From an uncultured bacterium (GTDB lineage: Bacteria > Patescibacteriota > JABMPQ01 > CAVVCK01), in contig CAVVCK010000002.1 in NCBI GenBank assembly GCA_963746775.1, positions 139,571-203,570 on the forward strand: 64,000 nt of DNA. Reading direction: 5' to 3'. Below, piece by piece: positions 51,078-57,907 of this stretch (positions are counted from its first letter, which is position 1; each line of letters begins with the position of its first letter). Below the pieces are notes generated by a model, which saw only the letters and a list, made by a program, of their open reading frames with translations, was not told the origin of the DNA and searched no databases. The position numbers were made by a program, and so were the translations under genes.

Positions 51078-52046
51078 TTATTTTTTTAACATCAACAAAA
51101 TCAACCCAATCATTTTGTCTTTTTCTTGAGGTTTAGATTCGGCAATAAACAGCGTAATAGCAGTTAGGGCTTCCGGAGTTATTTTATTCCTATAGTCAAA
51201 TCTTATTTTATTTAAAAACCAAATAAATATAAAAGCGCCGGTTCTTTTATTACCGTCACTGAATGGATGATTTTTTACAGAAAAATATAATAGATGAGCC
51301 GCCTTTTCTTCAATAGTTTCATAAACTTCAGTACCAAAAACAGCTTGAAAAACATTGCCTATGATGCCTTCTAAACCCTTTTTGCTTCTTTCCTGTGCAA
51401 ATAACCCTGTAGCTAATTTTTTCTTAATTAATTGTCTTTTAAATATTTCAATATCTTTATAAAGCTGATCAACTTGTATCCTAACATCTTTTTTAGTATA
51501 GCCATTTTGGGGTAGATTATCTTCGTCAAAAGACTCCAAAGAAAACCAGGTTGAAGCAAATGATTTTATTAATTCTAAAATATTTTCATTGGAAATTTTA
51601 TTTCCCTTTGGCAGTAATCTTTGCACTTTCTCTACCGCATCCATAAAAGACTGATAGTTTTTTTCAATTATTTTGGGATTTATAGTGTAGCCTTTTGTTA
51701 TGTGTTGCTTTAGGATTTTTGTAGCCCATTTCCTAAATTCAATAGCTTTTGCTGAATTTGTTCTGTAGCCAACGGCTAAAATAATATCTAAATTATAAAA
51801 ATTTGTATTATATGTTTTTCCATCTTCTGCAGTATGTGCAAAATTTGCACATACTGCTTTTTTATTCAGTTCTTCATTAGAAAAAATATTGTTTACGTGT
51901 TTTGTGATAACAGATCTCTCAACTCCAAAAACATCCGCAATCTGTTTTTGCGTTCCCCAAATAGTATCTTTGGAAAAATCTCCTCTAAACTTTATTTCTC
52001 CGTTTTTACCTTGATATATTACTATTTTGTTTTTTAATTTTTTCAT
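51078..52046 (-). CDS. RhuM-like N-terminal domain fused to Fic/DOC domain protein
   Basis: 322 aa. The N-terminal half resembles the virulence-protein RhuM family. The C-terminal HPFSDGNKRTGAF matches the Fic motif HxFx(D/E)GNGRxxR with one conservative change. Confidence 0.7.
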   Translation of the reverse strand: MKKLKNKIVIYQGKNGEIKFRGDFSKDTIWGTQKQIADVFGVERSVITKHVNNIFSNEELNKKAVCANFAHTAEDGKTYNTNFYNLDIILAVGYRTNSAKAIEFRKWATKILKQHITKGYTINPKIIEKNYQSFMDAVEKVQRLLPKGNKISNENILELIKSFASTWFSLESFDEDNLPQNGYTKKDVRIQVDQLYKDIEIFKRQLIKKKLATGLFAQERSKKGLEGIIGNVFQAVFGTEVYETIEEKAAHLLYFSVKNHPFSDGNKRTGAFIFIWFLNKIRFDYRNKITPEALTAITLFIAESKPQEKDKMIGLILLMLKK

Positions 52047-52055
52047 TTTATAAGC

Positions 52056-52925
52056 TTAAATATTATCCAACGGACTTCTTATATTTTTTAAAGCTGGGTT
52101 AGTTACTTGAGTATAAATTTGAGTCGTTCTAATATTTTGATGTCCGAGTAATTCTTGAACATAACGTACATCGGTTCCATTTTCCAATAAATGAGTAGCA
52201 AAACTATGACGTAGTGAATGAAAGGTTGCCTCCTTTTTTATTTCTGTCTTTTCAAGCGCCCTATGAAAAACTTTTTGCAAAGAAGCAGTTGTTAGTTTAC
52301 CACCACGATTACTTTCAAATATAAAATCATTATTATTTTTTCCAACTATTAAATTTTGAATATTATTTTTTAATTTTTCTGGAAAAACTGTAATGCGATC
52401 TTTTTTACCCTTGGCGTTTTTAATATGAATAATTAATTCTTCTAAATCAATATCTTTTACTTTAAGATTTATGACTTCGCTGACTCTAAGTCCAGCAGCA
52501 TATCCCAGGGAAACCATTAGCTTGTGTTTGAAATTATTTATTTGTAAAATAACTTTTTCGATTTCTCCCCTAGATAAAACAACTGGCAATTTTTTACTTC
52601 TCTTGGCACATTTAAAATTAATTTTATCATTCGATTTTAAAACTTCACGATAAAGAAATTTAATGGAATTTAGGGCCAAATTAATTGTTTGGGACGAATT
52701 TCCCTTCTCTTGTTTTTCTATTAAAAACAATTCAATAGCTTTATTCTTTTCTTTTATCATTTTTATTTTAGCAAAATCAAGATATTCTTCTATATAAAAT
52801 AAATAAGATTTTATAGTTTTTCTGCTGTAATTTCTTAATTTTAATAAATTTTCTGTTTTTTTTAAAATTGATTGCACGTTTATTGATAAATTAGTATAAT
52901 TCCAAGTATAGATAAAATATATCAT
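52056..52925 (-). CDS. tyrosine site-specific recombinase (XerC/XerD / phage-integrase family)
   Basis: 289 aa. Core-binding domain (KTIKSYLFYIEEYLDF). Catalytic residues lie in GLRVSEV (Arg), HSLRHSFATHLLENGTDVRYVQELLGHQNIRTTQIYTQV (HxxR, Tyr). Confidence 0.8.
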   Translation of the reverse strand: MIYFIYTWNYTNLSINVQSILKKTENLLKLRNYSRKTIKSYLFYIEEYLDFAKIKMIKEKNKAIELFLIEKQEKGNSSQTINLALNSIKFLYREVLKSNDKINFKCAKRSKKLPVVLSRGEIEKVILQINNFKHKLMVSLGYAAGLRVSEVINLKVKDIDLEELIIHIKNAKGKKDRITVFPEKLKNNIQNLIVGKNNNDFIFESNRGGKLTTASLQKVFHRALEKTEIKKEATFHSLRHSFATHLLENGTDVRYVQELLGHQNIRTTQIYTQVTNPALKNIRSPLDNI

Positions 52926-53019
52926 AAGTTAGTATAATATACAATTTATTGATATTAAAAAATAAAAAGTTTAGATAATAACCAGTTGGACGAAATTGTT
53001 CTAATTTTTTATCAAATAT

Positions 53020-53703
53020 ATGAATGATGTTTTTTTAGTTTTCGGGTACGGAGTTCCCAAGAATATCCTGAAAGACGAAAATTATAATTTTTATTTAAAA
53101 ATGGCCTTTAATAAGATTTATAGTTTTGTGGTAAAAAACAAGATTGATAAACCGATAATCATTACTTGTGGTGGCGAAACAGATATGTTGAAACCATACA
53201 AGCGTACTGAAGCCGATGAGATGATAAAATTGTTTGGTGCTTTGATTAAGGAACGACCATTTTTAAAACCAATGACCAAAAATTGGCTTTTTATTCCGGA
53301 AAATAAATCCCTTTCGACTTTGGAAAATTTATTAAACAGTAATGAGATAATTCAGAAACGGAAAATTAAAAATGCCAATTTTTTCATCTTCTGCGAGCAA
53401 ACACGTGAGAAGCGAATTAAGGTTTTGGCTAAAAAAATACTTGATAAAAATTATAATTTTCTAGTGGTGCCAATAGACTTTGATGTGTCAGCAAACAGGT
53501 ACTTACCTGCGGAATATCTGGTCAAAAAAGAAAGTGTCGAACTTAAGCATTCGTTGTGGGCTTTACAGAGTCCCGAAAACTTAAAAAAACATCATAAAGT
53601 TTTTGAGGAGAAGTTTGAATATTTCAGAAAAGTTGGTCATAAAGCACACATCAACGCCGTAAAAGAATGGTGGGATCAAAAACTTAAGGAATTAAAAAAT
53701 TAG
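53020..53703 (+). CDS. hypothetical protein, possibly DUF218/YdcF-like
   Basis: 227 aa. FLVFGYG and PIIITCGGET resemble the two Gly-rich segments of DUF218. Weak. Confidence 0.35.
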   Translation: MNDVFLVFGYGVPKNILKDENYNFYLKMAFNKIYSFVVKNKIDKPIIITCGGETDMLKPYKRTEADEMIKLFGALIKERPFLKPMTKNWLFIPENKSLSTLENLLNSNEIIQKRKIKNANFFIFCEQTREKRIKVLAKKILDKNYNFLVVPIDFDVSANRYLPAEYLVKKESVELKHSLWALQSPENLKKHHKVFEEKFEYFRKVGHKAHINAVKEWWDQKLKELKN

Positions 53704-53791
53704 AACAACATCGCACAACACGGCACATGCAGTTCGGAAATTTTGCGCAATTATAATTCAAGGTTTGCAAAATTTCCTCTCCCAAATTGCG

Positions 53792-53821
53792 CTGACGAAA
53801 TGGCAGGTTTAGTGATATAAT
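53792..53821 (+). promoter_or_regulatory. candidate sigma-70 promoter with extended -10 (cTGACG-N18-TGaTATAAT)
   Basis: TATAAT at 53816-53821 is preceded by TG at -15/-14. A TTGACA-like hexamer lies 18 nt upstream. It sits in a GC-richer leader with 10-bp inverted repeats (cggcacatgc at 53723 / gcatgtgccg at 53872). Confidence 0.35.
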
Positions 53822-54003
53822 CAAGTAAAGTGATATTAACAAATTTAATCAATAATCCACGGCGCAACTTCGCATGTGCCGATACGTTATGTGAAATAGC
53901 CAGAGATTTCTTTGTTATTTTTTAAATTTTTTGGCAATTTATTTCAACGGTCGACATAACTTACGATATTATATTAATAATTTAATTTTAACTAATATAA
54001 CTA

Positions 54004-54392
54004 TGAAAAATGAAGAAATGGGTATGGGCGTACCTGAACAAAAAACGCCTGAAATGTCTCCCGAAAAACGCGGAGAAAAAGCCAATGATTTAGTTGCAAA
54101 AATGTTAAGCAATGAAGAATGGTTAAAAAATGAAGCTGAAAGAGTCGATGCATTGATAAAAGAAAATCTATCAAAAGAGGCTAAAGGCATGGAGCACGCG
54201 TGGGTAAAATCAACAGATCCAGATTATAAAGAAAAAGTTATAGATAATTGGCTTTATCTTGGTATAGATGGCCTTGAAGAAACGAAGGAAACTTTTGGTC
54301 AAGATAGATTCGAACTTAAATGGGATATATTTAAAGCACTAAAAAGCCAAGGAGCTGCCAAAAAGGTACTAGAGATTATCGAGGGAAAATAA
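54004..54392 (+). CDS. hypothetical protein (start placed at internal MKNEEMGMG)
   Basis: The tracked ORF starts at 53931 with an implausible N-terminus. The composition downstream of Met at 54004 is protein-like. No motif. Confidence 0.4.
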
Positions 54393-54631
54393 ATTGCCAA
54401 AAAATTCTTTTTTAAAGGAATAGAAATTTCTGGCTACATTACATAACAGCGTGTATCTGGCTACGGAAAATTGGCGTCAATTAAATCCTATAGGAGTGCC
54501 AATTTTCCTCCGCCCAAATTTTCATCCCTTTATTTGATGAAGGTTTGGGTGGAGTTTAAAATATTAAGCTTATCTGATAATCAAAATAATTCCGCTAAAG
54601 TCGGGATGAAAACTTCAGATACACGCAAACA

Positions 54632-54768
54632 TTATCCAAAATTCCGCTCCGCTCCATTTTGGATAATGGGGCGCGGATGATGGGGGTTAAAGTATATTTA
54701 CCAAATAAAAAATAGTCACTAGTGCTACTCACGGAACATCGGATAACAGCGCATAAACGAAATTGCCT
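54632..54768 (+). repeat. 137-bp direct repeat copy A (about 90% identical to 55760-55895), containing perfect 11-bp palindrome TTATCCAAAAT-N13-ATTTTGGATAA
   Basis: The alignment of ttatccaaaattccgctccgctccattttggataatggggcgcggatg(a/g)tgggggttaaagtatatttaccaaataaaaaa...acatcggataaca(g/a)cgcata(a/g)ac(g/a)aaattgcct was read directly. Only the 22-nt central block differs. Confidence 0.75.
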
Positions 54769-54879
54769 AATATTCCGCTTCGCTACATATTAGACAACTT
54801 CGTTTATCCGCGCCCCATTGGACGCAATACATAACTTTACCGATAATATTTAGTTTAATTTTATTAAAAGGACAGAAAA

Positions 54880-55524
54880 ATGAATATTAACCACGCAATT
54901 AAAAAAACAGCAACCTCTTTCTGTATACTTAGTGGTGTCGCAAGTATCATTCATGGTTTTTTTGAAATACTACAGGGAAATGTGCCAGTAAAAATAGGGA
55001 AGATCTTGGCAATAGGTCCAGCGCATCGCTTCTGGGAATTCGGAGGGGAGCCAGCATTAACTATAATCCCAAATTATTTAGTAACTGGAATACTTGCTAT
55101 CATAATAAGCGTATGTTTGTTTGTATGGGCATTTATATTTATTGATAAAAAGCACAACCTTTTATGGATAGTTTTATTGACAATATCAATATTGTTATTC
55201 GGAGGTGGATTAGCACCTCCGACATTTATGATCATTTCCATTGCTGCAATATTGTTTATAAAACGAGACTTAGTATTCCGTAAATCTTCATTTATGGGAA
55301 AAATATTAAATTATTTTTCGTTCCTCTGGCCTGGTATTCTGTATTTTCAATATGTCCTTTTTCTTATAGCAATTATATCAGGTGTTAGTGGATATCCATT
55401 TTTGTGGGTCTTTGATGCAGGGAATTCTATAAAATATTTGCGTATTTATGGGTTGATTGTAACATTTATAATGGGGCCATTAACTATTATTTCTGCAATT
55501 GCAAATGATGCAAAGAAGATTTAA
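54880..55524 (+). CDS. hypothetical integral membrane protein
   Basis: 214 aa, 5-6 hydrophobic helices. It lies between the two direct repeats. Confidence 0.5.
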   Translation: MNINHAIKKTATSFCILSGVASIIHGFFEILQGNVPVKIGKILAIGPAHRFWEFGGEPALTIIPNYLVTGILAIIISVCLFVWAFIFIDKKHNLLWIVLLTISILLFGGGLAPPTFMIISIAAILFIKRDLVFRKSSFMGKILNYFSFLWPGILYFQYVLFLIAIISGVSGYPFLWVFDAGNSIKYLRIYGLIVTFIMGPLTIISAIANDAKKI

Positions 55525-55759
55525 TTATATTTTACATAAAGGACATGGTTTTAAAGTTTTACCATTGCAAATTTAGCATTGTGCTTACTATAAATCCTAA
55601 TATCTTTTAAATGGTAAAGTTATGTACTTCGCACAACAGCCGCTATACGCTCCGCTCCTCGCTCCCGTTGGTCGCTGCGGTGCTCGGGCTTCGCCACATT
55701 TTTTCTGCGCCTGCCTTCGGCTTATTCGGCGCAGAAAAAACGTTGCATAGCGGCGAACG

Positions 55760-55895
55760 TTATCCAAAATTCCGCTCCGCTCCATTTTGGATAATGGGGC
55801 GCGGATGGTGGGGGTTAAAGTATATTTACCAAATAAAAAAAGTCGGAGAGTTTACTTACGAAACATCGGATAACAACGCATAGACAAAATTGCCT
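55760..55895 (+). repeat. 137-bp direct repeat copy B (see 54632-54768)
   Basis: Same palindrome at 55760-55770 / 55784-55794. It is preceded by a 13-bp perfect GC-rich hairpin (ttttttctgcgcc...ggcgcagaaaaaa, 55699-55740). Confidence 0.75.
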
Positions 55896-55920
55896 TTCAT
55901 TTTTTAAACCAATCAATATT

Positions 55921-56265
55921 ATGTCCGAAGAACAAAAAGCATTCGAAAACAAAGAATCTACAGAACCAACACCTCGCCCCAATTTATTAGATGTTGTCAA
56001 AATTGATGGACGTTGGGCACAAACAATTCTTGGTGGCGAATGCGTCAGATATCTAGATGATGATAGTAAAGTGTTTATAAATTGGGACGACTTTATATTC
56101 GTCAAAGATTGGAAAACATTACCGGTCTGGAAAGTTAAAGAATCAACAAGTTTTACCAAAAAAGAACTGAGACAAATTCATTGGGGACCAGAGCAAGAAA
56201 AACATCCTTATCTTAGAGAAGCGGTTAGAGTTTTTGGTGAGTTTGAAAAAAGAGATAGAAAATGA
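55921..56265 (+). CDS. hypothetical protein
   Basis: 114 aa with balanced composition. The overlapping minus-strand ORF 55815-56159 is Ser/Leu-rich and antisense-like. Confidence 0.45.
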   Translation: MSEEQKAFENKESTEPTPRPNLLDVVKIDGRWAQTILGGECVRYLDDDSKVFINWDDFIFVKDWKTLPVWKVKESTSFTKKELRQIHWGPEQEKHPYLREAVRVFGEFEKRDRK

Positions 56266-56402
56266 AAGAAAGAATCGCCTAACACTGAATATCAGCAAAG
56301 GCCGAAACCACATCCGCTAAGACGAACGTCGGATCTTCAGATACGTTAAGTAAAATAAATAAGAAACATTTTATAAACCATTTATTTATATCAAAAACAA
56401 TT

Positions 56403-57029
56403 ATGCTAAAAGAAATAATAAAACCGACACGCATTAAAATTTTACTTGATTTAGCTATAACCATATTATACCTGGTTATAATTACCAATATTCCAACCTG
56501 GGGTTACGGTCAAATATTCTCCAATCTATCTTTAACTAAATTTATTTTGATTATTGGCTTAAATTTAATCTTAGTTGGCATCGTGTATTATCCATTTGTT
56601 TGCGGTTTAATCGGAATTTATAAATCAATTCATAAACCCTTTAATTACCATCATTTCCTAGTATCAGTTATTATTGTCCTAATTTTAAACCCATTTTCTT
56701 TTTATTTTATTTCAATTTTATTTATAAAAGATAACCAGCCACCAATTGAAAATCAACAAACAAAAACTTGCGGTTTGACTGTCATAAGTTTTGCTGATTT
56801 TTCAAAAGCAGAAAGTTCCGGACTAATGGTTGGCGATATTGTAACCGATGTTGATGGATCAAAAATCAACAGCGTTAATGACCTGATCGAAAATTCACAG
56901 CAGAAACAGCCAGGTGATATGACTAGCCTAGATACAGATCGTGGCATATTCAAAGTAGAGATTGTGCGCGACCCGAATAATAATGGTCCAGTTTTAGGAA
57001 TAAAATTTAAAGAAATAGATTGCCAATAA
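56403..57029 (+). CDS. membrane protein with C-terminal PDZ domain
   Basis: 208 aa with 3-4 TM helices. PDZ-like GLMVGDIVTDVDGSKINSVNDLIE...GPVLGIKF. Confidence 0.55.
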   Translation: MLKEIIKPTRIKILLDLAITILYLVIITNIPTWGYGQIFSNLSLTKFILIIGLNLILVGIVYYPFVCGLIGIYKSIHKPFNYHHFLVSVIIVLILNPFSFYFISILFIKDNQPPIENQQTKTCGLTVISFADFSKAESSGLMVGDIVTDVDGSKINSVNDLIENSQQKQPGDMTSLDTDRGIFKVEIVRDPNNNGPVLGIKFKEIDCQ

Positions 57030-57661: not shown

Positions 57662-57907
57662 ATGTATCACCTCTACATCCTCAAATGCTCCGACAACACT
57701 CTCTATACCGGCATCACCACTAATTTATCCAGAAGAATCAAGGAGCATAATTCATCAAAGTTAGGTGCAAAATATACGCGTAATAGGCAACCGGTAAAAT
57801 TAGTTTACTCTGAAAAATTTAATAACCGTTCCCAAGCTTCAAAAGAAGAAATGCGCATAAAAAAATTATCAAGAGAGGAAAAGTTAGATTTGATTTATAA
57901 AAAATAG
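57662..57907 (+). CDS. GIY-YIG nuclease superfamily small protein (second paralog in window)
   Basis: 81 aa. LYILKCSDNTLYTGITTNLSRRIKEHN. Begins 2 nt after the MBL gene stop. Confidence 0.7.
   Translation: MYHLYILKCSDNTLYTGITTNLSRRIKEHNSSKLGAKYTRNRQPVKLVYSEKFNNRSQASKEEMRIKKLSREEKLDLIYKK

Follow-up and report, generated by a model that had tools for sequence, protein, structure and literature searches.

What is the element that stands twice, at 54632-54768 and again at 55760-55895, in a 64,000-nucleotide (nt) stretch of bacterial DNA? The window (this whole stretch of 64 kb) has a GC content of ~31% and encodes RpoD and DnaG. It belongs to a source contig of 547,535 bp, and its relatives place it in the Patescibacteria, or candidate phyla radiation (CPR). 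The two direct repeats had been read in an initial annotation as a regulatory module in front of two small genes. According to the present analysis, they are very probably copies of one cassette which holds no open reading frame (ORF), consists only of its attC recombination site, and lies in a chromosomal integron-like array of a CPR bacterium.

Anatomy and family of the two repeats

The two repeats were aligned by MAFFT with one 1-nt gap and were identical at 123 of 137 positions, in agreement with the ~90% identity given before. A central block of 22 nt had been described as completely different, which was an artefact of the alignment, since with the 1-nt gap only eight consecutive differing bases were left (54718-54725, ACTAGTGC versus GGAGAGTT), and the two copies agree in AGTC and TACT.ACG.AAC to either side of it. 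Beyond this block the copies differ by five substitutions and one gap. A variable block of the guide-RNA or CRISPR type was also considered and was dropped because only eight bases differ in the alignment; no Cas-, TnpB- or IscB-sized ORF was found near the repeats.

The palindrome TTATCCAAAAT-N13-ATTTTGGATAA occurs twice in the 64 kb (54632-54666 and 55760-55794), compared with a mean of 0.01 in shuffled sequences. It is directly followed in each copy by AATGGGGCGCGGA, also written (A)ATGGGGCGCGGA, of which a single inverted copy was present at 54807-54819. The distances from the repeats to the downstream gene starts (111 nt for copy 1 and 25 nt for copy 2) and the GC-rich stems around the repeats (~54466-54510 and 55696-55743) were also recovered, and the GC-richer zone reported earlier exists, although the rise is modest (0.36 against ~0.31). 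Similarity between the repeats stops at 54768 and 55895, from where copy 1 runs into a long hairpin and copy 2 into the leader of ORF 55921. The ORFs overlapping the two copies lie on both strands, with different frames and ends.

Copy 1 is a complete gene-less cassette of 186 nt (54632-54817, plus strand), which makes it the third cassette of the array. It starts at A54631|T54632, the crossover of the preceding site attC2, and stops at A54817|T54818, with A54817 as its last base and |TTGGAC following. Hairpin A (54632-54666) has TTATCCAAAAT as its 5' arm (the R' half-site) and ATTTTGGATAA(T) as its 3' arm (R''a), with the loop TCCGCTCCGCTCC between them. It is followed on the same strand by L''a (54668-54678, GGGGCGCGGAT), an AT-rich filler (54679-54740), a canonical R''b (54741-54747, GGATAAC, then A), an inner hairpin (54749-54811) and L'a (54806-54816, ATCCGCGCCCC), the last being the "inverted core" that had been noticed earlier. 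The layout of the element can therefore be written as R' half-site (TTATCCAAAAT), 13-nt loop, R''a (ATTTTGGATAAY) and L''a, and further on R''b (GGATAAC)-A-L''b ... L'b/L'a with a final G or A.

In the proposed reading R' (TTATCC AAAAT) would complement the inverse core R'' (ATTTT GGATAA) near the cassette's own end, and the palindrome would represent the R-box of the attC of this cassette, with its cargo side closed. Since the cargo is only 13 nt, the half-sites form a perfect 11-bp palindrome when the cassette is integrated. Copy 1 is complete and, in principle, excisable.

Many relatives of the element were revealed by a metagenome scan, in which the palindrome arms were required to be exact and the loop was left free at 8-20 nt. 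The palindrome was found in 95 metagenome stretches, and 62 copies, chosen by a loose filter (CGCT/CGCG/GCTC, C/T-rich), had a C/T-rich loop related to KYCGCTYCGCTMC. These copies were not placed at random or in coding regions, as a simple repeat family would be: 54 of the 62 abut an attC or attI crossover, 47 of them right behind a 3' end of attC type (such as CATACACGCGAAC G|TTATCC) and seven right behind an attI-type arm. In 37 family members the 8-mer after GGATAA was perfectly complemented at 66-216 nt from the element start, and right behind the complement the next cassette began with TTRNNNGAAAT (TTATGTGAAATA and the like). The base that follows GGATAA (C/T) also pairs with the last base of the element (G/A). 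This closing complement, together with the pairing of the last base, means that the element is a complete cassette without a gene, and copy 1 has the same architecture as these 37 complete members of 66-216 nt. In one metagenome locus (L174; loci are cited by such numbers) seven near-identical copies of 216 nt stand between unrelated ORF cassettes.

The element was also searched for in 80 genome loci, which had been picked by recombinase homology alone (58-81% identity; nearly all from Patescibacteria metagenome-assembled genomes, MAGs). Neither GGGGCGCGGAT nor the exact palindrome was matched in these 80 loci, while variants with covarying arms were present. The R-box variants in the recombinase-selected loci were TTATCT, TTATTC, TTGTGT, TTGTGC and TTGTCC, several of them in the first cassette after attI. 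Among nine variants, six of the 12 stem pairs were changed on both sides and 98% of the cells were paired; column 1 of the stem, which is part of the upstream cassette, varies freely (A, G or G-T). Exact TGGATAATGGGGCGCGGATG had no match in metagenome and viral contigs, and GGGGGTTAAAGTATATTTACC had none in viral contigs, so L''a and the filler are lineage-specific, while the palindrome is widespread.

These data bear on the reading first given to the repeats, namely an operator for a dimeric regulator, or a cis-acting stem of an RNA leader, common to two genes and carrying a variable specificity block. The palindrome is indeed perfect, duplicated and upstream of two genes, and an RNA, or a contact that is specific for sequence, would agree with a loop that is conserved in relatives and confined to the sense strand. 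However, the arm spacing of 8-20 nt in relatives and the covariation of the arms fit a hairpin and do not fit a double-stranded dimer site, and the arms correspond to the recombination cores base for base. The supposed specificity block is reduced to 8 nt. No helix-turn-helix (HTH) regulator was encoded among the neighbouring proteins, and no Rfam family was matched: in the window only tRNA-Asn reaches the gathering threshold, and a permissive search of 53600-56500 gave unrelated eukaryotic families with E of 0.14 or worse. A tRNA/tmRNA scan of the window likewise detected only tRNA-Asn, distant from the repeats. The copies are tied to attC/attI crossovers instead of particular genes; there is no relationship among the genes downstream, and many elements precede another attC-only unit. 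A regulatory role of this kind is therefore highly improbable.

The initial annotation had also allowed for a small mobile repeat family. This came close to the present reading, a mobile family of cassettes without ORFs, but the family would be moved by site-specific recombination at G|TT of attC/attI sites and not by transposition. A miniature repeat of transposon type between genes, such as a miniature inverted-repeat transposable element (MITE), a repetitive extragenic palindrome or mosaic element (REP/BIME) or an IS200/IS605-derived palindrome-associated element (PATE), would also be short, non-coding, palindromic, multi-copy, intergenic and present in many metagenomes. But the element has neither terminal inverted repeats nor a target-site duplication, and no transposase, RAYT or TnpA/TnpB gene was found in the neighbourhood. 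The insertions are at [G/A]|TT of attC/attI, with the 54 abutting copies already mentioned, and the element ends with its own L'-G and obeys the circular-permutation rule of cassettes. Such an origin deserves hardly any credence.

The loop motif KYCGCTYCGCTMC was also seen on the tips of other hairpins, and in the 80 loci all 24 of 24 occurrences were on the cassette-sense strand. In the window it occurs at 54643-54655, 54773-54787 and 55645-55659, and elsewhere in L011, L019, L033, L036, L045, L058 and L078. A second recurrent module, TATAAGGNGTTTTC-loop-GAAAACGATTTAT, also holds the motif. The conserved loop may have an extra function at the level of protein contact or RNA.

Copy 2 (55760-55895, plus strand) is the same gene-less cassette, truncated within its attC. 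On the left it begins precisely at the attC4 crossover (G|TTATCC), G55759|T55760. It keeps hairpin A, L''a, the filler (55807-55867), R''b (55868-55874) and half of L''b, and ends at 55895; no L'/R' and no closing arm was found for it. Homologues of ORF 55921 (45-68% identity) were identified in another cassette array (L180-L183) and in ordinary operons (L179 and L184-L187). In the former the homologue is a free-standing cassette with the leader G|TTAGACGAAATTTTCTTTCATTTTTTAACC..ATG, compared with ..GCATAGACAAAATTGCCTTTCATTTTTTAAACC..ATG in the window, and the native, unfused leader of this cassette family is visible in L182. About 15 nt are alike between L''b of the element and the R' leader of the ORF cassette, from which a deletion fusing the two cassettes was deduced. 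This indicates that copy 2 probably lost the 3' half of its attC by a microhomology deletion and was fused to the ORF-55921 cassette, and it is predicted to be mobile only together with that cassette. Some homologues of ORF 55921-56265 stand in tight operons without attC sites (including L179, 4001-4339), and this gene family could possibly be both cassette-borne and resident.

The cassette array, attI and the recombinase

The region 52056-56356 is built like an integron, with a recombinase gene, an attI site and five cassettes on the same strand, each ending in an imperfect hairpin of attC type. To the right of the recombinase gene the ORFs are all on the plus strand, small and mostly without family assignment. 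A strict attC pattern (AAC-A-stem of at least 8 bp ... stem-NNAC-[G/A]TT), with the window's own sites as template, gave four matches in the 64 kb, all on the plus strand and each right after an ORF (53713-53892, 54441-54637, 55631-55765 and 56277-56351), while shuffled sequences gave 0.14. The fifth attC-type site is the hairpin closing copy 1, which carries a 2-nt bulge. The five sites span 75-197 nt with the layout NNNNAAC-A-[10-11 nt stem] ... [stem']-NNAC-[G/A]TTNNNN. Folding as single strands gave z of -2.8 to -5.9 for four of them; the short attC5 reached -1.0, which is not significant alone. In the 80 loci, 41 of the 43 strict matches were upstream of the recombinase gene on the opposite strand, and a later scan of a larger locus set, metagenome loci included, collected 95 sites.

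The attI-like site (52969-52996, plus strand) is a dif-like 11-6-11 sequence, GTTTAGATAAT-AACCAG-TTGGACGAAAT, with the crossover G|TT between G52985 and T52986. Its left part, ..GTTTRNATAAWAACSAG|TT (..ATAAWAACSAG|TT), adjoins the recombinase gene in 48 of the 59 loci whose flank was long enough, and beyond ..AG|TT the sequences diverge exactly and differ between genomes. In L008 the same attI is joined directly to TTATGTGAAATAGCC.., the leader of window cassette 2, and cassette 1 is missing from this otherwise collinear locus. The window therefore has an extra cassette of 901 bp (52986-53886) inserted at G|TT.

By rule, a cassette begins with the reverse complement of its own terminal R''. 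This rule is perfect in the window for cassette 2 (TTATGT/ACATAAC) and for copy 1 (TTATCC/GGATAA). In L078 seven attC sites delimit six consecutive cassettes, whose first six bases obey the rule in 6/6 (for example TTACCC/GGGTAA, TTCTAC/GTAGAA and TTAGGC/GCCTAA). Over all loci, 17 of 40 adjacent pairs were perfect at the four variable positions, compared with 5% on random pairing and 6% for R'' and R' of one integrated site as control. Such complementarity would be the signature of cassettes that circularise by a crossover at G|TT. The starts share TTRNNNGAAAT, with TTATGTGAAAT as the commonest.

Cassette 1 (52986-53886, plus strand) contains an ORF at 53020-53703 with a weak match to DUF218, and attC1 (53713-53892) with R'' GCACAAC, A, L'' CGGCACATGC, L' GCATGTGCCG, spacer ATAC and R' G|TTATGT, whose bottom strand folds with z of -3.5. 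Cassette 2 (53887-54631, plus strand) has an ORF ending at 54392 and attC2 (54441-54637; R'' ACATAAC, L'' GCGTGTATCTG, L' CAGATACACGC, spacer AAAC, R' A|TTATCC), and its start TTATGT is the exact complement of its own R''. The hairpin at 54468-54514 which the initial annotation had pointed out is the variable terminal stem of attC2. The leader and attC of cassette 2 are 79-88% conserved in L008, L005, L101 and L089, where the ORFs are unrelated. Terminal inverted repeats of ~60 nt (53886-53944 and 54387-54447; an extended R box, 20 nt of it perfect) were also seen in cassette 2, and its leader with the 240-nt attC resembles a reusable cassette chassis (L008, 3157-3826; L005, L101 and L089). 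No exact-sequence record was found for the shorter cassette-2 product.

Cassette 4 (54818-55759, plus strand) carries an ORF at 54880-55524, which encodes a membrane protein of 214 amino acids (aa) without family, and attC4 (55631-55765; R'' GCACAAC, L'' GCCGCTATAC, L' GCATAGCGGC, spacer GAAC, R' G|TTATCC), of which the hairpin noticed at 55699-55740 is the variable terminal stem. The remainder of cassette 5 behind copy 2 (55896-56345, plus strand) contains ORF 55921-56265 (114 aa, no family) and attC5 (56277-56351; R'' GCCTAAC, L'' CTGAATATC, L' GATCTTCAG, spacer ATAC, R' G|TTAAGT). The array ends with the distal right arm TTAAGTAAAAT (56346-56356, plus strand), which fits the cassette-start motif TTRNNN(G/A)AAAT and is presumably the original right arm of attI. 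No further site of the strict attC pattern was found downstream of 56356 in the window. When the cassette proteins of the window were compared with all fetched loci by tblastn, only contigs of the same sample matched.

An independent Logan short-read assembly (ERR11571143) holds the same organism in pieces (L001, L002 and L178). One contig ends at 53888, two bases beyond the crossover between cassettes 1 and 2, and the others break inside the repeats, at 54683, 55811 and 55840, which counts in favour of the cassette reading. Just past the array end, directly after a gene of the metallo-beta-lactamase fold, a stand-alone ORF with a GIY-YIG nuclease domain (81 aa, 57662-57907, plus strand) was observed.

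The recombinase gene (52056-52925, minus strand) is divergent from the cassette array and encodes an IntI/Xer-like tyrosine recombinase of 289 aa as its longest ORF, while its relatives have ~270 aa. Phage_integrase (PF00589) and a SAM-like N domain were identified by Pfam. The best NCBIfam model was TIGR02249, "integron integrase", with 224 bits in two stretches (cut-off 265), and the XerA_Arch profile gave 219.8 bits (cut-off 220). The best match in the Protein Data Bank (PDB) was VchIntIA (2A3V, E 9e-47), with an alignment split into two blocks (query 23-220 with chain 8-210, and query 212-288 with chain 243-319), so that chain residues 211-242, ~32 in number, are without counterpart; with XerA (5HXY) the recombinase is collinear in one continuous alignment. 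It thus appears IntI-like in sequence but without the IntI-specific insertion, and the system is called an integron-like variant. Its relatives are annotated publicly as "site-specific tyrosine recombinase/integron integrase", "integrase" or "XerD".

Contigs with the recombinase were also found in bins labelled Pacearchaeota (L061, which has attC sites too) and Methanosarcinaceae (L075), and in bins labelled Gammaproteobacteria, Bdellovibrionales, Actinomycetota and Nitrospirae (loci including L003, L006, L013 and L040). These labels could come from mis-binning of CPR contigs or from horizontal spread. On the side away from the array, the neighbour of the recombinase gene (51078-52046, minus strand) is a RhuM-family N-terminal region fused to a Fic/DOC domain. 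An inverted repeat, AAGTTTGYATAACATACAA (TTGTAT-AAC-ATACAA), is conserved in many loci (L003-L039) between the recombinase start and attI. The window version (52926-52944, AAGTTAGTATAATATACAA) is degenerate and includes TATAAT. This repeat may serve the recombinase or the array as operator or promoter element.

Could the recombinase instead be a housekeeping dimer resolvase, with attI as the chromosomal dif and the cassettes as hitch-hikers at the terminus, like integrative mobile elements exploiting Xer (IMEX)? The 11-6-11 form of attI gives some reason for this, as do the recombinase without IntI insertion, collinear with XerA, and the great frequency of its family in CPR. The dif site of E. 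coli is GGTGCGCATAA-TGTATA-TTATGTTAAAT. The left arm of attI resembles what we take to be its XerC arm and the cassette starts resemble the presumed XerD arm, to which TTATGTGAAAT corresponds at 10 of 11 positions. The GC skew of the window also changes at 52-53 kb. However, in at least 10 of 14 related loci having 10 kb on each side the skew keeps its sign from one flank to the other, which places the locus away from the terminus, and the cumulative skew of the window has a minimum there (origin-like, or a switch of gene strand) and not a maximum. Moreover, arrays of long imperfect hairpins with covarying L''/L' stems are a trait of integrons and not of dif. A resolvase at its own site is improbable, and this alternative concerns the host system, so that the identity of the repeats is unchanged by it. 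The skew itself is ~-0.25 from 3 to 52 kb and near 0 after, gene orientation flips at the same place, and the cumulative-skew minimum coincides with the recombinase/attI locus; related loci are without such a switch.

Possible movement of the cassettes and their effect on expression

The anatomy, boundaries, family, insertion polymorphism and covariation given above are observed features. As for how the cassettes move, the neighbouring recombinase probably catalyses the reaction, with single-stranded hairpins as likely substrates: it would recombine folded attC hairpins with the dif-like attI at G|TT. By stacking on the L''a/L'a stem, hairpin A would reproduce the attC of the excised circle and bring both boundaries together, and by this argument the stacking should favour excision of such a small unit.

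An effect of the repeats on the expression of the downstream ORFs 54880 and 55921 is possible. In one form of this idea, which would add a function to the gene-less cassette without replacing it, the filler (54679-54740 and 55807-55867) acts as a promoter for these otherwise promoterless ORFs. Both copies are directly upstream of an ORF on the same strand, and most of the gene-less cassettes tested in Vibrionaceae superintegrons, and several from oral metagenomes, had promoter activity (PMC11014356, PMC6557892). Two family members (L167 and L173) also have AT-rich fillers, and the one in L173 contains TGATATAAT. But the AT-rich stretch that had been called promoter-like has no conserved match to the sigma-70 consensus on the sense strand of the shared repeat part, and the region has fewer consensus matches than shuffled sequences (11 against 14.5); the scan, which covered sigma-70 promoters and terminators, gave no excess. 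A promoter is also not family-wide, for the fillers of most members are GC-rich or, in the 66-nt elements, absent. Promoter prediction in silico has been reported to be unreliable for gene-less cassettes (PMC11014356). A promoter cassette is thus rather unlikely, with some chance left to it.

Several points weigh against the reading of the repeats as gene-less cassettes of an integron-like array. The 13-nt loop is conserved across variants with different stems, which a pure model of an empty cassette would not predict, and promoters are frequent in gene-less cassettes of Vibrio (PMC11014356). The recombinase is without the IntI-specific insertion near patch III, which defines integron integrases and has been reported as necessary for their activity (Messier & Roy 2001, as cited in PMC9668308). 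In attC2 and copy 1 R' begins with A and not with G, and their activity may be lower for this reason. Since the attC pattern was taken from the sites of the window, only the other loci are an independent test, and the breadth of the metagenome family is biased by the exact palindrome arms required for retrieval.

Significance and comparison with known systems

Instead of a regulatory module, the repeats are two copies of a gene-less cassette, the first intact and the second truncated and fused. The same architecture was found upstream of homologous recombinases in dozens of Patescibacteria genomes. There is a somewhat less than even chance that CPR carry a very widespread and apparently undescribed class of integrons, with a short recombinase intermediate between IntI and Xer and without the IntI-specific domain, folded attC sites with 11-bp R boxes like XerD arms, a dif-like 11-6-11 attI, and attC-only mini-cassettes as the most mobile cargo. 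If true, it would be a living intermediate between Xer/dif recombination of the IMEX type and classical integrons, and the additional domain would not be required for cassette capture of integron type.

Integrons are the classic platforms of gene capture in bacteria and are defined, computationally and biochemically, by an integrase with a special insertion; intI is called by IntegronFinder through the IntI-specific additional domain (intI_Cterm), and very small genomes were reported to lack integrons (PMC4889954). Here a complete attI/attC system was seen in reduced CPR genomes, with insertion polymorphism and circularly permuted cassettes. No description of integrons or attC arrays in Patescibacteria/CPR was found in the literature searched, nor one of integron-like systems without the additional domain, which does not prove that none exists. 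If recombination is confirmed, gene exchange of integron type would extend to a large and poorly understood part of the bacterial tree, finders requiring the IntI-specific profile would be expected to label such arrays as attC clusters without integrase, and a concrete system would be available for testing the evolution of integrons from Xer recombinases. With 66-216 nt, and being in essence a circularly permuted attC, the repeats also offer a minimal natural substrate that is attractive for recombinase biochemistry.

With the sedentary chromosomal integrons, such as the superintegron of V. cholerae with its V. cholerae repeats (VCR) as attC, the locus has many things in common: a divergent tyrosine recombinase gene beside attI; a same-strand array of small ORFs, mostly of unknown function; an imperfect palindrome after each ORF, made of R boxes (..AAC/GTT..), L boxes and a terminal stem that varies; the crossover G|TT, circularly permuted cassettes, some of them duplicated, and attC sites that are homogeneous in the lineage. 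VchIntIA (2A3V) is the nearest solved relative of the window recombinase. In contrast to these integrons, the recombinase here is without the IntI-specific insertion near patch III, the R boxes are full 11-bp arms (TTRNNNGAAAT), up to ~60 bp in cassette 2, and the R-L spacers of the two sides measure 1 and 4 nt. The attI is dif-like (11-6-11) and conserved across many lineages, and the hosts are CPR bacteria with very small genomes.

The Xer/dif recombination is exploited by IMEX such as CTX-phi and by the pdif modules of Acinetobacter plasmids, and CTX-phi integrates as a folded single-stranded hairpin made of two inverted dif-like sites. Such elements share with the present locus an Xer-type recombinase without IntI insertion, an 11-6-11 target whose right arm is like the XerD arm of dif, and an integration which regenerates the site, so that arrays can grow. 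Unlike them, the present site lies away from the terminus, and the units, which number dozens and all point the same way, are small single-gene cassettes with structured attC instead of elements of phage or island size; the cassette boundaries obey the G|TT rule of integrons.

The archaeal integrons (Ghaly et al. 2022, PMC9668308) also form arrays in MAGs of small-celled uncultivated lineages, including DPANN. Their IntIs were reported with the IntI-specific additional domain (PMC9668308), whereas the window recombinase is without it.

The closest counterparts of the repeats are the gene-less cassettes of Vibrionaceae (PMC11014356) and of oral, Treponema-type integrons (PMC6557892), which are likewise bounded by crossovers, have their own attC and no ORF, are sometimes duplicated in the array, and stand upstream of ORF cassettes. 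Compared with those having promoter activity, a promoter is unsupported by the sequence here. The content outside attC goes down to 13 nt in the present family, whose members are essentially a circularly permuted attC with a second R''/L'' module, and the family is extremely widespread, often as the first cassette at attI.

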